From: a virus
Taxonomy: Duplodnaviria > Heunggongvirae > Uroviricota > Caudoviricetes
Reading direction: 5' to 3' (one strand)
IMG/VR virus record: IMGVR_UViG_3300024272_000009
DNA: 64,000 nucleotides
Part shown: positions 4,034 to 57,487 of the stretch, in pieces
How positions within the stretch are numbered: position 1 is the first letter of the stretch
Layout: each line of letters begins with the position of its first letter
Translations under genes and position numbers: made by a program
Notes under the pieces: model-generated
The model's database searches: none
What the model saw: the letters and a program-made list of their open reading frames with translations, nothing else
What the model was told of the DNA's origin: nothing

Positions 4034-4534
4034 TTATTCATATAATATAAGGTCGCCGGTTCGGAGAGTTTCTTTTAGGTCGATAATTCTTTGGTTCGAA
4101 GATCCGCGATATTTCAGTCTAAGGTCTTTTAGTTCTTCTACGAATCTACCGTCGACTACTACATCGATTCCGGAATCTACTAGACCCTCTAATACTTCTT
4201 CTAACAAGTAGCCGGTCCAAAGCCAAACAGTTTTATCCGGATACACTTCCTTAAATCTTCTGGCAAGTCGACATACCTCAGCAAGGTTCCTAGGGTGCAA
4301 GGGTTCTCCACCAAGAATACTCAGTCCGCTAATATGATCCGGCTTAGCGAGTTTGAGGATACTAGTTAAAATATCCTCAGTAAACTCCTTGCCATGATCA
4401 AAGTTCCAAGTTTCCGGGTTAAAGCAGTTCTTACATCTGTGCTCGCAGCCACTAACGAAGAGACTGATCCGGCAGCCAGGGCCATTAGCAATATCTAAAC
4501 TTCTAATCTGACTATAATTCATTAGCACCCACAC
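4034..4534 (-). CDS. nrdG: anaerobic ribonucleotide reductase activating protein (radical SAM)
   Basis: 166-aa protein with the CxxxCxxC radical-SAM cluster motif (GCEHRCKNC). It overlaps the nrdD stop by 13 nt, the typical coupled nrdDG arrangement. Confidence 0.85.
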   Translation of the reverse strand: MWVLMNYSQIRSLDIANGPGCRISLFVSGCEHRCKNCFNPETWNFDHGKEFTEDILTSILKLAKPDHISGLSILGGEPLHPRNLAEVCRLARRFKEVYPDKTVWLWTGYLLEEVLEGLVDSGIDVVVDGRFVEELKDLRLKYRGSSNQRIIDLKETLRTGDLILYE

Positions 4535-6732
4535 TCATGACAGTCCATATGAACGAAGCGGTCTTTAATCTCTGCAGTTCTGCCTTGGTTAAAGAACTGA
4601 GTTCCGATGTAGCCACAAGTTCTTCTAGCAACATTCATCTTGCTTTGGTCTCTGTTACCACAGTTAGGACACTCCCAGACAAGCTTACCCGACTCATCTT
4701 CTACGATCATGATCTCACGATCCCAGCCACACTCCTGACAGTAGTCTGACTTAATGTTGAGTTCCGCATACATGATGTTATCGTAGATATACTGGATTAC
4801 TGTAAGTACTGCTTCGAGGTTATTCTCTAGGTTCGCACTTTCGATGTAGCTGATTGCACCGCCGGAAGAAAGTCTCTGGAACTTCGCTTCTACCGCAAGC
4901 TTTTCGAAAGGATCTATCTCTTTAGTTACATGAACATGATAACTATTAGTAATATAGTTCTTATCTGTAACTCCGGGAATTTCGCCCCAGCGCTTCTGCA
5001 AGCACTTAGCAAACTTGTAAGTAGTGCTCTCAAGAGGGGTTCCGTAGATTCCGAAGCCGAGATAGAGTTCCTTGTTCCACTCATCGCACTTCTTGTTCAT
5101 GTATCGCATGATCTCGAGTCCGAGTTCCTGGCCTTCTTCGGTTAGAAGGTCCTTACCAATAAGTTCTACCACACATTCCCACAAACCAGCGTATCCAAGT
5201 GAGATAGTCGAGTATCCGCCAGTAAGAAGCTTATCGATAGTCTCACCTTTCTTAAGTCTAGCGATAGCACCATGCTGCCAGAGGATGGGAGCGACGTCGC
5301 TTACTGTACCCTTGAGTCTTTCGTAGCGGCAGAGCAGGGCTTTATGACAGAGCTCAAGTACTTCATCGAAGTTCTTCCAGAAGCTACTAAGATCCTTCGA
5401 GTAGTTCGCACCATCGGATCCACACGCGACATCAACTAAGTTGACGGTGACTACACCCTTATTAAAGCGGCCGTACCACTTCTGTTTACCATTCTCATCA
5501 TACCAAGGAGAGAGACAGGATCTACAACCCATAGGAGCGAAGCATCCGCCTTCCTTGAGTTCCTTCATGATCTTCTCACTAATGTAATCCGGAACAAGTC
5601 GCTTAGCAGTACACTTTGCTGCAAGCTTAGTAAGATACCAGTACTCGGAATTAGGATACACGTTATCTTCTTCTAGAACATATACAAGTTTTGGGAACGC
5701 GGGGGAAACCCAGACGCCTTTCTCATTCTTGATGCCCTCAGTTCTCTGACGAAGAACTTCTTCGATAACCATCGCAAGATCTTTCTTAGTCCGCTCATCT
5801 TCTACTTCATTGAGATACATAAACACAGTGATGAAAGGGGCTTGACCATTTGTAGTGAGCAGGGTATTAACCTGATACTGGATAGTCTGAACGCCGCGCT
5901 TTACTTCTGCTCTTACACGCTTTTCTGTAATTGCAGCAATTTCGGCTTCAGCTTCTGTATCGAAACCTACCATATCGAATTCAGCTCTTACTTCATCCAT
6001 AATCTTACGCCTAGAGACGTCTACGAAAGGAGCAAGATGTGAGAGGGTGATTGACTGACCGCCATACTGGTTACTACTTACTTGTGCGATGATCTGTGTC
6101 GCAATATTACAAGCGGTAGCAAAACTATGAGGCTTCTCAACTAGAGTACCGGAAATTACGGTTCCGTTCTGAAGCATATCTTCGAGATTAACTAAATCAC
6201 AGTTATGCATCTTCTGAATGAAGTAATCTGAGTCATGGAAGTGAATAGTACCATCATCATGAGCCTTGACTACATCCTTAGGAAGAAGAAGTCTTCTGGT
6301 AATATCCTTACTAGTTTCTCCTGCCATGTAATCTCTCTGCGTAGAATTAACTACAGGATTCTTGTTCGCGTTCTCCTGCTTGAGTTCCTCATTTGCGAGG
6401 TTAATCAAACTCAAGATCGAATCATCGGTAGTGTTTGACTTTCTAACAAGCTCCTTATTGTATCTATATTTAATAAATGCACGAACGAGATTGTTGTAAT
6501 TTCGGGAGATGAGTTCGTCTTCGATCAGGTCATTAATGTCCTCGACTTTAATTGCCCTCTTATATACTTTACACTTCTCTTCTACAATAGTTGCAAGCTG
6601 ATCAATCTTTCTAGGACCAATCTGCTTTGATTTAATAACTTCCTGATTAGCCTGAGAAATTGCCTTGATAATCTTAGACTTATCGAATTCGACTTCTCTG
6701 CCATCACGCTTAATAACTCTTTGCATAATCAA
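4522..6732 (-). CDS. nrdD: anaerobic ribonucleoside-triphosphate reductase (class III RNR)
   Basis: 736-aa protein. The C-terminal glycyl-radical motif RTCGYIG is preceded by a Zn-ribbon (CQECG...CPNCG). Length and layout are typical of NrdD. Confidence 0.9.
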   Translation of the reverse strand: MIMQRVIKRDGREVEFDKSKIIKAISQANQEVIKSKQIGPRKIDQLATIVEEKCKVYKRAIKVEDINDLIEDELISRNYNNLVRAFIKYRYNKELVRKSNTTDDSILSLINLANEELKQENANKNPVVNSTQRDYMAGETSKDITRRLLLPKDVVKAHDDGTIHFHDSDYFIQKMHNCDLVNLEDMLQNGTVISGTLVEKPHSFATACNIATQIIAQVSSNQYGGQSITLSHLAPFVDVSRRKIMDEVRAEFDMVGFDTEAEAEIAAITEKRVRAEVKRGVQTIQYQVNTLLTTNGQAPFITVFMYLNEVEDERTKKDLAMVIEEVLRQRTEGIKNEKGVWVSPAFPKLVYVLEEDNVYPNSEYWYLTKLAAKCTAKRLVPDYISEKIMKELKEGGCFAPMGCRSCLSPWYDENGKQKWYGRFNKGVVTVNLVDVACGSDGANYSKDLSSFWKNFDEVLELCHKALLCRYERLKGTVSDVAPILWQHGAIARLKKGETIDKLLTGGYSTISLGYAGLWECVVELIGKDLLTEEGQELGLEIMRYMNKKCDEWNKELYLGFGIYGTPLESTTYKFAKCLQKRWGEIPGVTDKNYITNSYHVHVTKEIDPFEKLAVEAKFQRLSSGGAISYIESANLENNLEAVLTVIQYIYDNIMYAELNIKSDYCQECGWDREIMIVEDESGKLVWECPNCGNRDQSKMNVARRTCGYIGTQFFNQGRTAEIKDRFVHMDCHECGC

Positions 6733-13820: not shown

Positions 13821-14414
13821 TTATTCCTCTCTTTCTGCCGCGGACTCTATATGAGAAAGAACATCTTGGATTATTTCTTTAGTAGCATCAGAAAGATTCT
13901 TCTCCGGGTCGTCCATAGCTTTATTATAATAAAAATCAGAAAGTTCTTTTAGGTCTCCCTTATCTATAGAGAAGGAACCCCAGTCGCAGAGCATCTCAAG
14001 AATATAGATATAAGGCATGTCTTCTCCCAGCCAGAATTCAGGGTGATGCTCATTGTTCATCCAGTGATGCTTCCATGCTTCCTCATACTCGAAGGTCTTC
14101 TCTCCGTTGCCATACCACTTCTGAGCGTAAGGCTCGAACTCTTCTTCCGAGAATTTAGACTCATCGTGTTCATTAATAACTTCATGGAAAGCATCGAGGT
14201 CGACGCCCTCGAAAACTTCAGGACAATTTTCTTCTAGCCAGGAAGCAAACTTCTTTACTCTTTCTTTATGTGCTTCTATATACTCTTGATATTCTTTCTG
14301 ATAATCCGCTCCGCCCTCTGCTATAGCGCTAAGAGCATGAAGAGCATTAATAAAATTCATATTCATCTTTTCTTGCTGCCTTTCTATATAGATTAAAAGC
14401 TTCCAAGGAAGCAA
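13821..14414 (-). CDS. hypothetical protein
   Basis: 197-aa acidic ORF with His/Trp-rich motifs (HHWMNNEHHPEFW). Confidence 0.55.
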   Translation of the reverse strand: MLPWKLLIYIERQQEKMNMNFINALHALSAIAEGGADYQKEYQEYIEAHKERVKKFASWLEENCPEVFEGVDLDAFHEVINEHDESKFSEEEFEPYAQKWYGNGEKTFEYEEAWKHHWMNNEHHPEFWLGEDMPYIYILEMLCDWGSFSIDKGDLKELSDFYYNKAMDDPEKNLSDATKEIIQDVLSHIESAAEREE

Positions 14415-23909: not shown

Positions 23910-26900
23910 TTATCCCATTACCCAGCCACCAAGGCTAACATTTCCACTGCCAGTACCCGGAGTTACGCTACCAGTTTCATCAGTGGCTACTTTATCACTG
24001 ACTTGTCCACTGCTAGAAGTTGTATCACTGCTTATACCAGGAACTCCGCCAAGAGCTGTGTCCCCAGAGCCAAGTCCGCCACCAGTTAAGCCGTAGCCAG
24101 CGACTTTAACGGTAATAGCTCTGCTACCACTAGCAACTTTATCAAGTAGTTCATAGATTTTTATTACATAAGAGTTTAGTACATCTACCTGGTTGTCTTC
24201 TGCTTCTTCCTTGGCCTCAACCATTTGTTTCTTTTTGTCGTCCTCAGCACCTTGAACAGTTGAGTCTTTGAGGTCGCTGCCTGAACCATTTCCAACAGTA
24301 GCAGAACCAGATGTAGTTTGTGCACCACCGCCGGTAAGACCACCGCCACTTATTTCACCACGAGGTGTAATAGTTAAGCCGGAGCCTTCCTTTATACCCA
24401 TCTTATTTAACATAGATCGTCCACTGAAGGATGAAAATAAACCAGAGATCATAGGACCGATGCTTCCAAGAATACCTGTACCGACAGAAGCAACACGCAT
24501 TAAGTCCGCAACAGTAGTTTCAAGGTCAACACCAAAGCCCATTACGTTTAAGAATGGGAGAGCAATACCGCCAGTAGTATCTTCAAGTAAGCCTGCCATT
24601 TTGTAGGTTAGGTAGGAGATTGGGTTATTTGCCATGCTGCTAGCTATTGTATACTGACCGTTTTCCCAAATATTGGTCATCATCTCACCAATACTTGTAC
24701 GCATAAACATCGTGCCAGCCATGTCGTATAGCTGATTTATTAGATTACCATATGTTTTATAATCACCAAATATATTTGCGGTAGTATTATCTTTAGCAAG
24801 GTTAACAGCTGCTTTTAGGTCAGAAGCTTTAACACCAAATACATTTGCCAGCTGCTGCTGAACTACGTTATTACCCTTAGAGGATTCTGCAATTTCAGCC
24901 AAGTAATTTACAGTTGCTTGTAATAATTTATTTGTATTTTCTGCATCCAAGCCTTCAGAAAGAATTTCCGCAATTGGAATATCCGCATTGTTTGCGGCCA
25001 TAACAAGTAAGTTACCTGCACCATTTCCAGTAAGAGCATCAATCTGACCAGAAGCAATTTGGCCTAATGCGCCAGCAATTGCCTGTACTGAAGAGGATGA
25101 CATACCTACTGAATAAAGTGAACCCATCCACTTCTGAACTTGGTACTCAACTTCAGTAGCAGCAGCTCCACCCATAAGAGCTTCCATTTCTTCTAAGCTA
25201 CCACGTACACTTGCGGCAACATCTGTTAGATACTCAGATGTTTCATACATGTTATTTAAGAAAGAGTTCAAAGCAGACTCCATGCCAAGACGACCAGCAG
25301 TAGAGTCTTCTTGCTGAATTCTTATTAATCTTAGTAGGGTGCCATCAGCCACATTAAAAGTATTAGCAATCTTTTCTTGAACAGTCATCAAGAAAGCACG
25401 CTGTTTAAGATCAAAAGAAATACCTTTATTAACGAGCTCTTTGATGTTATTCGCAAAGTCTTCTTGTTTAAAGAAAGGCGTAACAGCGCCAACACTCATC
25501 ATATCTTTGGTAAGCTGGTTCCAATAGGAGCCCATAGACTTTTTATTGTTAGAGCCTTGGAGACGTGTGTCTATTCCACCTTGGTACTGAGCAATACTGT
25601 CTATCTTGCTCTCAAGTTGAGCCATAAGACTGCTTATTGCTTTTATAGCAACAGCCATCTGTGCTGCGCCCTTATCTTCATCATCAACAGAGTCTGTTAT
25701 ACTCTTTAGTTCTTTAAATCTAGAAACAAGATTATCTTCTTTACTGAGATTCTGGAAAGAAGCTGCATGCTCGATTTTACTATCAGTAGCAGCAACAGAA
25801 TCTCGTTTTTCTTTTTTAGCAGCTTCTAGCTGCAACTTTTCTAGCTTTTTCTGATTTTTCTCGTCAAGAACATACTCTTCGTTTTTCTGTTTTTTGAGGT
25901 CTTTTAGTTTTTTGGCAAGCTCTTCACCACTATACTTTTTTCTAAGCTTTATTTCTTCATTTACGATGTCAATAGCTTTTTTCTTTTCAAAAGCAGCGAC
26001 AGCTTCTTGGTTTGCCTCTTTAAACTCTTCAAGCTTTTTAGCTTCTAGTGCAGCTCTAAAACGCTTAGCGGTGAGCTCGTCTAAATGCTTTTGTTTAGTA
26101 TCAAATTCATCTTTAAGCTGTTTTTCGATAGCCGCAGCGTCAGCAGCTCTGAGCTTACCATTATTATTGGCCATAGCCTCAAGCTCTAATGCTTGTCGCC
26201 TCTCGGCCATAGCAGTTTTAATTTCTTCTAAAGACTTTGCATTTTCTTCCGCTGCAATTTGTTCAGCTCTTAGCTTACCAAGTTCTCTTCTACTAGCAGC
26301 ATTTCTAGCATAGTCAAGTTGAGTATTAATCTCATCCATTAGTTGCTGTGCTTTTGTTTCAGCATCAACAACTTCTTGTATACGAGCTATTTTATATTCT
26401 ACTCTCTGGCGCTCCAAATCTTCTTCGGTTTTGTTCCTTGCTAGAGCTAAGGCAACTTGTGCATCATGTGCTTCCTTAGCTGAAGTTAATAACGTAGTCA
26501 GATGCTTAGTAATACGTTCTTTACGCGCAGCATCAATTTCTGCTTCACGTACATTTAACGCATCCATAACTGCACTCAAGTCGACTACTGCATCAGAAAG
26601 CCCAGCAATTTCATCCTCTGCCGCGAAAGTTCGTACTGTAACGTCTGGCACGACGGGAGGTCGACCTTCGTCACCAGCTCCAGCGTCAGCACCACCGCTA
26701 CCGGGAGTTGGAGTATAATGGCTTGCTCTAAGTGCCTCTATAAGTGCCGAAGAGATATCATTAATAGCAGAAGCATTATCTTGACGAGTAGCTGCTACTT
26801 CCCCCGCCGCAGGACTAACTTCTTCGGTTCTACTTACACTTGGTGTATCACCGCTTGTTATTGCAGTAAAGTTGCTGGCTTTAAGGGCGTCTCTTAGTGT

Positions 26901-27398
26901 AGTAGCATACTCATCACTATTTGCTGCGCTGCTAGCACGACTTGCCGTTAGAGCATCTCTTAGAGCCATTGCTGCTTCTACAAAACGAGTTTCTTCTCTG
27001 CTAGCCTTAGTAGCCCGCGTTGTTCTGCTTGTTGTAGTAGCTGAAGCACTCTCAGAGCCATCAGGTTTGTCTTTTGGTCGTTCTGTTTTTTCTCGACGTT
27101 GCTGCTCTCGAGAAGCTCTTTCAGCAGATTTAAAGCTTTCATTGAGTAATTCGTTTGCTAACAAAAAGGCATCGTTTAGCTTGCTATATTTTCGAGCAAT
27201 CATATCAAGATTCTTTGAATATATATCAAAGTATTCTTCTAGATATGAAATTCGGAGTTCGCCAATATCTTCTTCACCAGATAAGACTCTTCCGATAATT
27301 TCCTCCTGTTGGCTAGTGAGGCTCTTTGCTTCAGAAATTACATTACCAAGTCTTTGTAATTGTTCTGGCGATAGTTTGCCTAATTCTTCATTAGCCAT
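23910..27398 (-). CDS. tail tape measure protein
   Basis: 1162 aa. It has a long A/E/K-rich coiled-coil centre, a Gly-rich C-terminus (GGGLTGGGAQTTSGS...) and a hydrophobic segment. It sits after the chaperone-like pair. Confidence 0.8.
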   Translation of the reverse strand: MANEELGKLSPEQLQRLGNVISEAKSLTSQQEEIIGRVLSGEEDIGELRISYLEEYFDIYSKNLDMIARKYSKLNDAFLLANELLNESFKSAERASREQQRREKTERPKDKPDGSESASATTTSRTTRATKASREETRFVEAAMALRDALTASRASSAANSDEYATTLRDALKASNFTAITSGDTPSVSRTEEVSPAAGEVAATRQDNASAINDISSALIEALRASHYTPTPGSGGADAGAGDEGRPPVVPDVTVRTFAAEDEIAGLSDAVVDLSAVMDALNVREAEIDAARKERITKHLTTLLTSAKEAHDAQVALALARNKTEEDLERQRVEYKIARIQEVVDAETKAQQLMDEINTQLDYARNAASRRELGKLRAEQIAAEENAKSLEEIKTAMAERRQALELEAMANNNGKLRAADAAAIEKQLKDEFDTKQKHLDELTAKRFRAALEAKKLEEFKEANQEAVAAFEKKKAIDIVNEEIKLRKKYSGEELAKKLKDLKKQKNEEYVLDEKNQKKLEKLQLEAAKKEKRDSVAATDSKIEHAASFQNLSKEDNLVSRFKELKSITDSVDDEDKGAAQMAVAIKAISSLMAQLESKIDSIAQYQGGIDTRLQGSNNKKSMGSYWNQLTKDMMSVGAVTPFFKQEDFANNIKELVNKGISFDLKQRAFLMTVQEKIANTFNVADGTLLRLIRIQQEDSTAGRLGMESALNSFLNNMYETSEYLTDVAASVRGSLEEMEALMGGAAATEVEYQVQKWMGSLYSVGMSSSSVQAIAGALGQIASGQIDALTGNGAGNLLVMAANNADIPIAEILSEGLDAENTNKLLQATVNYLAEIAESSKGNNVVQQQLANVFGVKASDLKAAVNLAKDNTTANIFGDYKTYGNLINQLYDMAGTMFMRTSIGEMMTNIWENGQYTIASSMANNPISYLTYKMAGLLEDTTGGIALPFLNVMGFGVDLETTVADLMRVASVGTGILGSIGPMISGLFSSFSGRSMLNKMGIKEGSGLTITPRGEISGGGLTGGGAQTTSGSATVGNGSGSDLKDSTVQGAEDDKKKQMVEAKEEAEDNQVDVLNSYVIKIYELLDKVASGSRAITVKVAGYGLTGGGLGSGDTALGGVPGISSDTTSSSGQVSDKVATDETGSVTPGTGSGNVSLGGWVMG

Positions 27399-54539: not shown

Positions 54540-56408
54540 CTAATCAATACTGATAATTCCTCTGCATTTAGGGTAGGCAGAGCAACCATAGAATAGTTTT
54601 CCAAATCTGCTTCTTCTAACTACCATAGGTTTGCCGCAATTTGGGCACTCTTTCTCTGGCATCTCTGGAGCAATACCGGTTTCATTAGTGGCTCCAATAA
54701 TATCTTGTAAATTTTTATAGAAATTTTCCATAAAGTCAAGCCAAAGAATTTTACCGCCGGCAATTTTATCAAGGCTTTCTTCCATTTCTTTAGTATAATT
54801 TAAATTTATTAAAGTAGGGAATGACCTATTACAGTAGTCAGCTAATTGCATACCACGATCAGTAGGAACAATGTGCTTTTCTTCCAACTTTGCGTAACCT
54901 CTTGTTGGGCTTAAAATTGTTTCTACTATTGTTACATAAGTAGATGGTCGGCCGATACTTCTATTCTGAAGCTCTTTAACTAAACTTGCCTCTGTATACC
55001 TAGGCTTAGGTTGTGTAAATTTTTTAGCTGCCTCAAGCTCAGCATCTTCCAAGGTTTCGCCAACGGTAAATATAGGCGTAGAAGCTATGTCAGAAGTATC
55101 ATCGTATTCATATACTGCTTTATAACCAGCACTTAAAAGCTCTTTTGAGCTAAGCGTAAATTTATGCCCGTTATTATTAATTATATAAATTGTTTCTGAA
55201 ATAACTGCATTTGGCATTGCTGAAGCAACAGTACGTTGCCATATTAGCCTATAAACTTTTGCAAGTAGTTCATTGCCAGTGGTAGCCTCTACAATATCTG
55301 GAGTCAGATTCGGGTTTGTGACTCTAAGGGCTTCGTGCCCATCTTGGTCTGTTTCTTTTTGTTTAGACTTTCTTGGCCCTACATAACTGGCTGCGCCGTA
55401 AGTATTTTCTATAAAAGTTTTTAGTTCTGGAATAAATTCTTGTGCAAATTCCGTAGAGTCTGTACGCATATACGTAATCAAACCAATGTGTTCGCCAGCT
55501 AGACTAATTCCTTCAAAGAGTTTTTGCGCACAGCTCATAGCATCTTTTACTTTAAGACCGAGCTTATTCGCTGCCTCCTGTTGAAAAGTAGCAGTACAAA
55601 ACGGCGGTTTTGGAGACTCTTGGTGCTTAACCACTTTGGTATCTTCAATTATATAAGCACCACCTTTGCAGTTGTTTATAACCGCATCAACGTCAGCTTG
55701 CCTTGAAAATTTATCAATAACCTCGTCATTATACCCAGCATATTTTGCTTTAAAAGCTGTACCATTTTTTATAAAGTTTAAATATAGATTAAAATACATT
55801 TCTGGTACAAAATCCATAATTTCTTTTTCTCTGTCTGAAACAAGTTTAAGTCCAACGGACTGACACCGCCCAACTGACTTAGCACCAAGATACTTTTTCG
55901 CTAAAGGACTAAGACCGTAGCCAATAAGTTTATCTATCATCATTCTGGTTAGCCCAGCATTTACGATATTATCATCAAAAGGTACAGGATTTTCTAATGC
56001 ATATACAACTGCTTTAGGTGTTATTTCATGCATAACGATCCTAAAGCACTTGTCAACAGGCAGTTCACAAAATTTAATTAAGCTCCACCCAATTACAAAG
56101 CCTTCTCTATCTTGGTCGGTTCCAATATAAATTTTATCTGCAATTTTTGCCTGTGCGATAATATCTGCTACTACTTTTTGCTTATCATCAGCAATAGCCA
56201 GATTCATTCTAAATTTTTGCTTTGGATATATGCCTGAATTATAAGCAGGTCCACCATCGCCAAGTTTCATAATGTGACCGACAGAGGCCATTACTACTGC
56301 TTTTGCATAACCAGCCTTTTTCAGTATTCCTGAGATAGTTTTTACCTTATTAGGCGATTCGACTATTACAAGTATCCTTTCATTGTTTGTTTTCACTTTG
56401 CTGCTCAT
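54540..56408 (-). CDS. type IA DNA topoisomerase (Topo I/III-like) with C-terminal zinc ribbon
   Basis: 622 aa. The TOPRIM motif reads ILVIVESPNKVKTI. The acidic triad reads IYIGTDQDREG. The C-terminal ribbon is CPNCGKPMVV...CSAYPKC. Confidence 0.85.
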   Translation of the reverse strand: MSSKVKTNNERILVIVESPNKVKTISGILKKAGYAKAVVMASVGHIMKLGDGGPAYNSGIYPKQKFRMNLAIADDKQKVVADIIAQAKIADKIYIGTDQDREGFVIGWSLIKFCELPVDKCFRIVMHEITPKAVVYALENPVPFDDNIVNAGLTRMMIDKLIGYGLSPLAKKYLGAKSVGRCQSVGLKLVSDREKEIMDFVPEMYFNLYLNFIKNGTAFKAKYAGYNDEVIDKFSRQADVDAVINNCKGGAYIIEDTKVVKHQESPKPPFCTATFQQEAANKLGLKVKDAMSCAQKLFEGISLAGEHIGLITYMRTDSTEFAQEFIPELKTFIENTYGAASYVGPRKSKQKETDQDGHEALRVTNPNLTPDIVEATTGNELLAKVYRLIWQRTVASAMPNAVISETIYIINNNGHKFTLSSKELLSAGYKAVYEYDDTSDIASTPIFTVGETLEDAELEAAKKFTQPKPRYTEASLVKELQNRSIGRPSTYVTIVETILSPTRGYAKLEEKHIVPTDRGMQLADYCNRSFPTLINLNYTKEMEESLDKIAGGKILWLDFMENFYKNLQDIIGATNETGIAPEMPEKECPNCGKPMVVRRSRFGKLFYGCSAYPKCRGIISID

Positions 56409-56562
56409 TAGATCTCTCCTTATGTAAACTTTCTTCTAAGAGTTGTCTAATAACAGCAGAAATACTAACTGAACGTTTGAAAGCTTCTAATCTAAGCTCT
56501 TCTCGTAATTCGTCAGATATTTCTAAGCTTATCATCTTCTTTGCCATTATTTTATTCCTCAC
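56380..56562 (-). CDS. ribbon-helix-helix DNA-binding protein
   Basis: 60 aa. KMISLEISDELREELRLEAFKRSVSISAVIRQLLEE shows the RHH beta-alpha-alpha pattern. It overlaps the topoisomerase start by 29 nt. Confidence 0.5.
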   Translation of the reverse strand: MRNKIMAKKMISLEISDELREELRLEAFKRSVSISAVIRQLLEESLHKERSNEQQSENKQ

Positions 56563-57347
56563 TTATGAGACTTTTTGTGTACTTTTGACACAAAGTTTTT
56601 AAACTCGGCTCTTTGTCTGGCCTTTTCAGAGGCACCTGCCGTCGCAATAGCTTTGTTAGCTGCCTTATTTGCCTTTGCATGTCGGTCTGTCTCGTGCTCA
56701 GACTCTACTACTGTAATACGACCATTGATAACATTTTCAGTAAACTTGAGATTTCTAAACTGCTTAGCAGCAACATCGTCTGATTCGATAACAGTCTTTA
56801 AACTTTCGATACGCGCAGGTAAGAAGGTATCTTTGTAGAAAGGAATAATCTCAGCAAGGTCTGACTCTTCGATCTTGCCATCTTCTTCAATGTCAGAAAC
56901 AAGGCCAAGCGCACTAGGAAGAACTCCGTCAATAATTTGAGCCTGTTGATCAAACATGCTTGCCGCAATGCCTATAAGCTTGTTATCTTCGTACTTAAAA
57001 TCATCATTGTAATAAACAACAGTAATTTCTTCAGGTCTACCGATTACAATCTCTTTGCCAGGCATTGATGCACAGGTTTCGATAACAATGTTGAGGCCCT
57101 TCTTTTTCGTGATAATAGGGTTAATAAAAGTCTTAATCTGGTCATTAAATCTTAAACAAAAGATACGCTTATTAATACCAATCTGAGGAGCAGAAAGTGC
57201 AATAAGATCTGGATTCGCATTAAGAACTTCTTTGATCTTGCTGATAATCTCAGTGCCTTCCTCAGTTTTAGGACCTTCTTCTGTTAAAAATGTTAAAGGT
57301 TCTACTGGTGTGCTAAGTACTTCAGCATCAGTAATAATTGTTTCCAT
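56559..57347 (-). CDS. peptide deformylase-like protein with degenerate catalytic motif
   Basis: 262 aa. PDF motif I is present as ALSAPQIG, and motif II is ETCAS (EGCLS-like, Cys kept). In place of HEXXH the sequence reads QQAQIIDG. A C-terminal K/A-rich extension of about 100 aa follows. Confidence 0.5.
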   Translation of the reverse strand: METIITDAEVLSTPVEPLTFLTEEGPKTEEGTEIISKIKEVLNANPDLIALSAPQIGINKRIFCLRFNDQIKTFINPIITKKKGLNIVIETCASMPGKEIVIGRPEEITVVYYNDDFKYEDNKLIGIAASMFDQQAQIIDGVLPSALGLVSDIEEDGKIEESDLAEIIPFYKDTFLPARIESLKTVIESDDVAAKQFRNLKFTENVINGRITVVESEHETDRHAKANKAANKAIATAGASEKARQRAEFKNFVSKVHKKSHK

Positions 57348-57393
57348 TTAAATATCTCCTTATAAATCTAAATATACAATATATTATACATTA

Positions 57394-57401
57394 AATTTAG
57401 C
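57394..57401 (-). promoter_or_regulatory. GCTAAATT box plus TGTATAAT element upstream of the PDF-like gene
   Basis: Minus strand reads GGCTAAATTTAATGTATAATATATTG. It is followed by AAGGAG and the ATG. Confidence 0.5.
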
Positions 57402-57454
57402 CAATTTTAATAATTTTAAATCTATTAAATTAATAAATTAATAACTTAATAGCC

Positions 57455-57487
57455 GAAAAAAGCGAGCTTAGTGCTCGCTTTTGTTTT
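57455..57487 (-). terminator. bidirectional hairpin terminator overlapping the stop of gene 57468..57836
   Basis: aagcgagc (57460-57467) pairs with gctcgctt (57473-57480). T runs lie on both sides. Confidence 0.65.

Follow-up and report, generated by a model that had tools for sequence, protein, structure and literature searches.

The window analysed here is the whole stretch of 64,000 nucleotides from IMG/VR virus record IMGVR_UViG_3300024272_000009 (Caudoviricetes), and our subject is a complete minus-strand gene in it whose product resembles peptide deformylase (PDF) and is followed by genes for a small ribbon-helix-helix (RHH) protein and a type IA DNA topoisomerase (Table 1). The PDF-like gene begins with an ATG preceded, 8 nt upstream, by an AAGGAG Shine-Dalgarno sequence. 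Its product is matched over residues 8-143 by the Pfam profile Pep_deformylase (PF01327) with E=8.5e-20 and 71.4 bits, the gathering cut-off being 22.8, and also by PHROG 2890, 'peptide deformylase', with E=2.7e-19. A phmmer search of the PDB sequences retrieved 35 PDF chains, the best of them the cyanophage S-SSM7 enzyme 3uwa (E=9e-11), and the nearest solved relatives are this phage protein and 1lme from Thermotoga maritima. The profile match and the alpha+beta PDF fold make the protein a member of the peptide deformylase superfamily. Its scores fall far below the equivalog cut-offs of NCBIfam, with 43.7 against 103.95 for TIGR00079 and 46.6 against 125 for NF001159. The protein as a whole is acidic, with a pI of 5.25.

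Table 1. Coordinates of the PDF-like gene, its parts and the adjoining features, in positions of the window
Feature	Coordinates	Strand	Basis and remarks
Complete PDF-like gene	56559..57347	-	ORF (open reading frame) list and sequence; 262 codons plus TGA stop
PDF-fold core domain, residues 1-143	56919..57347	-	acidic (net -8), no His
Motif I remnant, S52-A-P-Q-I-G57	57177..57194	-	sequence and alignment to E. coli Def
Motif II remnant, E90-T-C-A-S94, EGCLS-like	57066..57080	-	sequence
Degenerate motif III, D133-Q-Q-A-Q-I-I-D-G141 in place of QHExxHxxG	56925..56951	-	PDB alignments
Family-specific extension, residues 144-215, short strand and acidic helical hairpin	56703..56918	-	AlphaFold2 (AF2) model; conservation in 116 diverse members
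Basic K/A-rich C-terminal helix, residues 216-262	56562..56702	-	net +7, pI 10.3
Small RHH gene	56380..56547	-	likely start ATG at 56547, 55 aa; a 55-aa gene also in the relative locus L003
Type IA DNA topoisomerase (Toprim + Topoisom_bac + C4 zinc ribbon)	54540..56408	-	Pfam E=3.6e-102
Sigma-70-like promoter candidate, TTAAAA-16-TATAAT	57383..57410	-	consensus scan 10/12; pattern match only
GC hairpin GCGAGC-ACTAA-GCTCGC-TTTTTT, candidate intrinsic terminator at the end of the upstream gene	57458..57482	-	read from sequence; the scan lists the + strand

The original prediction had described a PDF whose first two motifs are recognisable and whose third is missing, and both parts of this description can be read directly in the protein. 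In motif I, L48-I-A-L-S-A-P-Q55, the AxQ and its Gln are kept and both glycines of the consensus GxGxAAxQ are replaced, by L48 and A50. Motif II keeps the Cys ligand (Cys92) and has Thr in place of its Gly. At the third motif, three alignments to PDB sequences place DQQAQIIDG (residues 133-141) opposite QHEIDHLEG or QHEFDHLNG, and the two metal-ligand histidines are thereby exchanged for Gln134 and Ile138 and the catalytic Glu for Gln135. A HExxH located elsewhere, which the prediction had named as the finding that would count against it, is absent along the whole protein and from all 120 closest homologues; the only histidines are at positions 218, 223, 257 and 261, all in the tail, and residues 1-217 are free of His. 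The PDF active site needs the His ligands and the Glu of motif III, and their loss excludes the known PDF mechanism (PMC5591237, PMC8712518). With motif III stripped of these ligands and of the Glu, it is a strong inference that the protein does not deformylate peptides by the known metallo-hydrolase mechanism.

The residues found at the degenerate site are retained by the close relatives of the gene. From a large protein database 963 homologues were obtained, the best 120 of which share 74-99% identity with the window protein and, with few exceptions, measure 258-266 aa; the name given to the close homologues by JGI is 'peptide deformylase', assigned automatically. All scorable sequences among these 120 keep the pattern FDQ[QLH]AQ[ILMV][IL]DG, and an alignment of 43 sequences of 74-99% identity contains 117 invariant positions, Q134, Q135, A136, Q137, D140 and G141 among them. 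Pairwise ratios of nonsynonymous to synonymous substitution rates (dN/dS) between the window gene and the genes of ten relatives range from 0.04 to 0.15, and the reading frame is unbroken in all relatives. The pair formed with the relative L003 gives a dN/dS of 0.048 at a dS of 0.068, a value low enough that the ratio is free of saturation. The residues that replace motif III are thus, from these comparisons, themselves under purifying selection. Together with the residue loss and the fold, this selection gives good support to the view put forward in the original prediction of a dead and repurposed PDF, the inactivity remaining a strong inference. Two unusual members were noted among the relatives. 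In P0121 (locus L080, a contig of 1.4 kb, 74% identical) the tail beyond residue ~199 gives way to two-thirds of an RNase H domain, the C-terminal part (Pfam E=1.5e-6), and in P0172 an unrelated N-terminus is joined to the C-terminal region of the family; both may be real fusions or assembly chimeras.

The model of the protein obtained with AF2 from a diverse alignment of 123 sequences has a mean predicted local distance difference test score (pLDDT) of 95.5 and a predicted template modelling score (pTM) of 0.80; with a shallow alignment of 43 close homologues the pLDDT was 42 and the model was unusable. After the PDF core the protein carries a C-terminal extension of 119 aa, in which the model places a strand at residues 149-152, a hairpin of two helices at 161-189 and 191-207, and a terminal helix at 217-261 with pLDDT above 90 over most of its length and the sequence EFKNFV near its end. 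A K/A-rich tail of 100 residues had been predicted, and this description holds for the last ~47 aa, which are indeed basic and rich in K and A; it does not hold for the rest of the extension, since residues 144-215 form the conserved acidic hairpin, with a net charge of -7 and the near-invariant glycines G148 and G209. In the clade of the window protein the tail contains KRAKAKKAANKA and, close to the end, the conserved EFKNFV, in place of an Arg-rich motif that recurs in other members. Sequence searches of Pfam and PDB revealed no relatives of the extension.

A HMMER scan of 1.84 billion representative sequences gave 2,421 clusters at E<=1e-3, of which 179 reach E<=1e-10, and the best 150 clusters consist mostly of proteins of 210-285 aa that can be aligned through the hairpin to about residue 215. 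Among 123 diverse family members all three HExxH residues are missing in 92, and HExxH together with the motif II Cys is retained in only 9. The original prediction had proposed to look for relatives with an intact HEXXH; a few distant, basal members do carry one, but most do not. Five of the nine (P0164, P0165, P0169, P0221 and P0241) have the motif I Gln changed to Ala (SAPAIG), a substitution suggesting that activity may be altered even in this branch. Retention elsewhere in the same 123 sequences is high for A53 (121), G57 (117), E90 (111) and Q55 (107); the Cys is found in 51 and lost in 72, and a Gln stands at the position of the first His in 83. The consensus of the degenerate motif III is Q-[M/Q]-x-x-[L/I/M]-L-D-G, from which the metal site of degenerate members is predicted to be occupied by Gln and hydrophobic side chains. 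Near-invariant positions of the family are A53, G57, R61, N76-P77, E90, R104 and G141, in addition to the two glycines of the extension.

The members with HExxH share the helical hairpin. They have large hydrophobic residues at the equivalents of L125 and I128 of the E. coli S1' pocket, where the degenerate members have A/P/V and E/A/F. In a neighbour-joining tree, which is rough and is given low weight, the intact forms adjoin canonical PDFs, the degenerate forms make up a large derived radiation, and forms with H-x-x-x-H and without the Glu fall between them. The family hairpin is strongly acidic, with a median net charge of -10. A positively charged tail is found in only about half of the family and some members are almost tail-less; an Arg-rich [LV]NR[EAK]QRR recurs in the tails of many members, for example P0129, P0132, P0137, P0153 and P0168. 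No informative domain fusions were found in the family, the lone fusion with RNase H, that of P0121, being possibly chimeric.

By structure, Foldseek matched the UniProt entry A0A8S5MKA8, 'Polypeptide deformylase [Siphoviridae sp. ctrpg19]', with E=1.2e-18, a target template modelling score of 0.85 and 217 aligned columns including the hairpin; this protein belongs to the same extended family, and its name is an automatic one only. When the window protein, P0158 and P0164 were compared by tblastn with cultured phages, canonical PDF cores alone were matched, and because these matches stop at the core (at most 62% coverage) no cultured phage appears to carry the extended family. Literature searches found neither a phage PDF family with a degenerate catalytic site nor its helical extension described, which is not proof of absence. 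A side observation concerns the locus L076 (IMGVR_UViG_3300023223_000189), in which two separate ORFs have intact EGCxS and HExxH, a phage with two apparently active PDFs. In the 64-kb window a second PDF gene was sought with the hidden Markov model of the family and not found; the window covers all but ~36 kb of the genome.

The PDF-like gene is preceded by an AT-rich spacer of 120 nt (57348-57482; 100-140 nt in relatives), which contains the promoter candidate and the candidate terminator of Table 1. The terminator hairpin is symmetric, with A and T runs on either side, and is predicted to terminate in both directions. Downstream, the RHH gene lies 11 nt past the stop codon of the PDF-like gene and overlaps the start of the topoisomerase gene by 29 nt, an overlap that suggests translational coupling; the matches of its product to RHH/CopG/Arc families are weak (E 6e-4 to 7e-3) and under the cut-offs. 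The topoisomerase has a match in PHROG 13226, an entry labelled 'unknown function'. From this layout the co-transcription of the PDF-like gene with the RHH and topoisomerase genes is plausible, as had been predicted. The linkage itself, however, is conserved only in part. The block SbcC-like ... o122, PDF-like, RHH, Topo IA, o333, AAA ATPase is kept in relatives whose PDF-like protein is at least ~47% identical; once identity falls to 31-36%, the topoisomerase and RHH genes have lost their adjacency, several small upstream genes have kept theirs, and the neighbours include genes for SSB and phosphoesterases. Across IMG/VR contigs and contigs of metagenome-assembled genomes (MAGs), synteny of the PDF-like gene could be followed from 99% down to 31% identity. 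Searches of Pfam, PHROGs, NCBIfam and PDB with the neighbours o122, o272, o333 and others were without result, and most neighbours (o122, o119, o105, o187, o118, o131, o272 and o333) have no detectable family.

The window encodes a T4-like portal, a prohead protease, a major head protein, a large terminase and a tail sheath, together with SbcC-like and helicase proteins. All convincing ORFs of at least 150 aa lie on the minus strand across the 64 kb, the GC content is 37.8%, and there are no tRNA genes in the window. An anaerobic ribonucleotide reductase pair at 4034-6732, formed by a NrdD-like protein (736 aa, E=5e-206) and a NrdG radical-SAM activase (166 aa), indicates an anaerobic habitat. 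In or near the tail region a DUF5662 protein (13821-14414, E=1.5e-24) and a 1,162-aa protein without family match (23910-27398) were also noted. The best relatives of the portal are proteins of Streptococcus, Listeria and Bacillus phages, at 25-31% identity, and 24 kb of the window, searched by DNA megablast, matched none of the INPHARED phages. A strong Shine-Dalgarno sequence of the AGGAG type precedes at least 32 of the 47 genes, a pattern that would fit a Bacillota-like host better than Bacteroidales; binning has assigned some relatives to a Bacteroidales MAG and to a Bacilli MAG. Close relatives of the gene occur on contigs of about 90-240 kb from IMG/VR and ENA. The PDF-like gene is a conserved core gene of an uncultivated, myovirus-like phage lineage with genomes of ~100 kb, probably with early or middle expression.

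We propose that the PDF-like protein is probably a conserved pseudo-deformylase, which acts by binding and not by catalysis. The binding would most plausibly take place at the ribosomal exit site and alter N-terminal processing, a reading drawn from the likeness to bacterial PDFs which we hold tentatively and with somewhat less than even confidence; the docking on the ribosome and its consequence are a conjecture. In this proposal the family probably descends from an active phage PDF in which the C-terminal helical hairpin was already present; the loss of catalysis would have come later and spared the fold, the strand of motif I, the hairpin and, for this clade, the basic C-terminal helix. Through this helix the protein would dock near the exit of the ribosomal tunnel, as bacterial PDFs do, where it would either occupy the site shared by the host PDF and methionine aminopeptidase (MAP) or hold nascent N-termini, and co-translational N-terminal processing would be altered during infection.

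Several observations weigh against this proposal. Because a tail of positive charge is confined to about half of the family and some members are almost without a tail, the tail cannot be the core function of the family. The hairpin, which is conserved universally, is strongly acidic, a property unexpected for a contact with rRNA. The binding of fMet-peptides is doubtful because the degenerate group does not conserve the residues that line the S1' pocket. The neighbourhood, with its genes for SbcC-like protein, topoisomerase, SSB and phosphoesterases, is one of DNA metabolism and not of translation. Finally, support for a role at the ribosome, on nascent chains or as a decoy, as suggested in the original prediction, is indirect and comes from the likeness of the basic C-terminal helix to those of genuine PDFs.

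A non-catalytic module could be directed at another protein or peptide, as an adaptor, chaperone, inhibitor, decoy or anti-defence factor with the acidic hairpin as its interaction surface. This would agree with the conservation across the family of the fold and the acidic hairpin only, with a variable tail, with the remodelling of the S1' pocket, and with the position of a lineage-specific core gene among many small genes without assigned function; moreover, acidic helical proteins are common as phage inhibitors or mimics. On the other hand no partner has been identified, the PADLOC defence models give no match and the domain fusions are not informative, and we regard a binder of this kind as possible and somewhat unlikely. 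The neighbouring genes could instead point to a factor associated with DNA or replication, in which the K/A tail would resemble histone H1 and the protein would act together with the RHH protein and topoisomerase IA. The tight order of the three genes, conserved to ~47% identity, speaks for this explanation, as do the SbcC-like, SSB and phosphoesterase genes beside distant relatives, the basic character of the tail and the partial RNase H domain that takes its place in P0121; nevertheless the adjacency to the topoisomerase and RHH genes is gone at 31-36% identity, the protein is acidic overall and a basic tail is missing from half of the family. K/A-rich tails also occur on genuine PDFs, and because intact Treponema PDFs carry them and many family members have [LV]NRxQRR, they are better seen as a normal accessory of PDFs than as a sign of DNA binding. 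The neighbourhood is in addition weak evidence, because all genes are on one strand and non-structural genes cluster together. For these reasons an association with DNA seems to us unlikely.

The explanations that do not involve binding fare worse. An enzyme that has kept deformylase or another amidase or hydrolase activity through an altered set of catalytic residues, such as Cys92 with Gln or Asp, might be suspected since Cys92 and Gln55 are kept in the window clade, Gln stands at the first His position in two-thirds of the family (83 of 123), and the definitions of the PDF motifs have proved looser than once thought (PMC12690207). Yet the core has no His at all and is deprived of the two metal ligands as well as of the catalytic Glu, the Cys is lost in 72 of 123 members, mostly Met, Leu and Ile fill the positions like a hydrophobic plug, and the equivalog scores are far under their cut-offs (46.6 against 125, for instance), so that residual catalysis is very improbable. 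A decaying, functionless remnant of a phage auxiliary PDF gene is hardly credible. The loss of all three motif III residues is typical of pseudogenes, but the selection data contradict such a decay: the frame is intact in all relatives, dN/dS is only 0.04-0.15, 117 residues are invariant among 43 sequences, the replacement residues are themselves conserved, and synteny is retained to 31% identity. Within the proposal of a pseudo-deformylase at the exit site, the family might go as far as to act as protein inhibitors of host N-terminal methionine excision, displacing PDF and MAP from the exit site in an actinonin-like manner, a possibility to which we give little credence at present.

Phage PDFs are regarded as auxiliary metabolic genes by which deformylation is boosted, and the databases label this whole family 'peptide deformylase'. 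The present analysis describes a large and strongly selected phage family whose catalytic machinery is lost and whose fold persists, with a conserved helical extension acquired in addition. Pseudoenzymes and inactive PDFs were known already; a phage lineage of pseudo-PDFs with a new C-terminal module is new. The 'PDF' annotations in viromes thus overstate enzymatic capacity, a clean evolutionary series from active enzyme to pseudoenzyme is now at hand, and the protein becomes a candidate phage factor for the ribosomal exit site or for another target. If the N-terminal processing of the host were blocked, the protein would be an analogue of the antibiotics that inhibit PDF, and if PDF and MAP were displaced, this would be a mechanism of host takeover at the level of translation that was previously unknown.

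Comparison with the known deformylases brings out several differences. The characterised phage PDFs conserve all three motifs, are active, and have very short or truncated C-termini (PMC3660681; PMC5591237). In contrast to the PDFs of cyanophage S-SSM7 (PDB 3UWA/3UWB) and of Vibrio phage Vp16 (5MTC), the window protein has no HExxH and carries the 119-aa extension, and judged by its sequence it shows neither the three motifs nor the truncated C-terminus by which phage PDFs (type 4 / Vp16-like) are defined. The PDFs of type 3, namely the accessory enzymes of S. aureus and S. pneumoniae, as well as those of archaea and trypanosomatids, are substituted in their motifs, reported to be weakly active or inactive, and variable at the C-terminus (PMC12690207; PMC5591237). 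The window protein resembles them, by description and not by phylogeny, in the substitution of crucial motif residues, with motif III replaced and the Gly residues of motifs I and II exchanged. However, type 3 PDFs are cellular proteins described as changed in motifs I and II (PMC12690207), whereas the window protein is encoded by a phage, has motif III wholly replaced, and has its nearest solved relatives among type 1B/4-like enzymes.

For the C-terminal part the closest parallels are found in bacterial enzymes. PDF docks through its C-terminal helix on L22 near the tunnel exit, at a site which overlaps that of MAP (PMC8712518, PMC5591237), and the window protein is similar to the type 1B Def of E. 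coli in having a basic alpha-helix at its extreme C-terminus. Two Treponema PDFs from rumen MAGs, L016 and L020, have cores that are 36-37% identical to the window protein and share FINPIITK with it; they possess intact GVGLAAPQ, EGCLS and HENDH motifs, and directly after the core they carry a 45-aa K/A-rich tail much like residues 216-262, for example KKKAERAQKKAAQKEAKARSIAAKIAAKNAKKGNA. Unlike the window protein, both E. coli Def and the Treponema PDFs have their catalytic residues intact, and no acidic hairpin separates their core from the tail.

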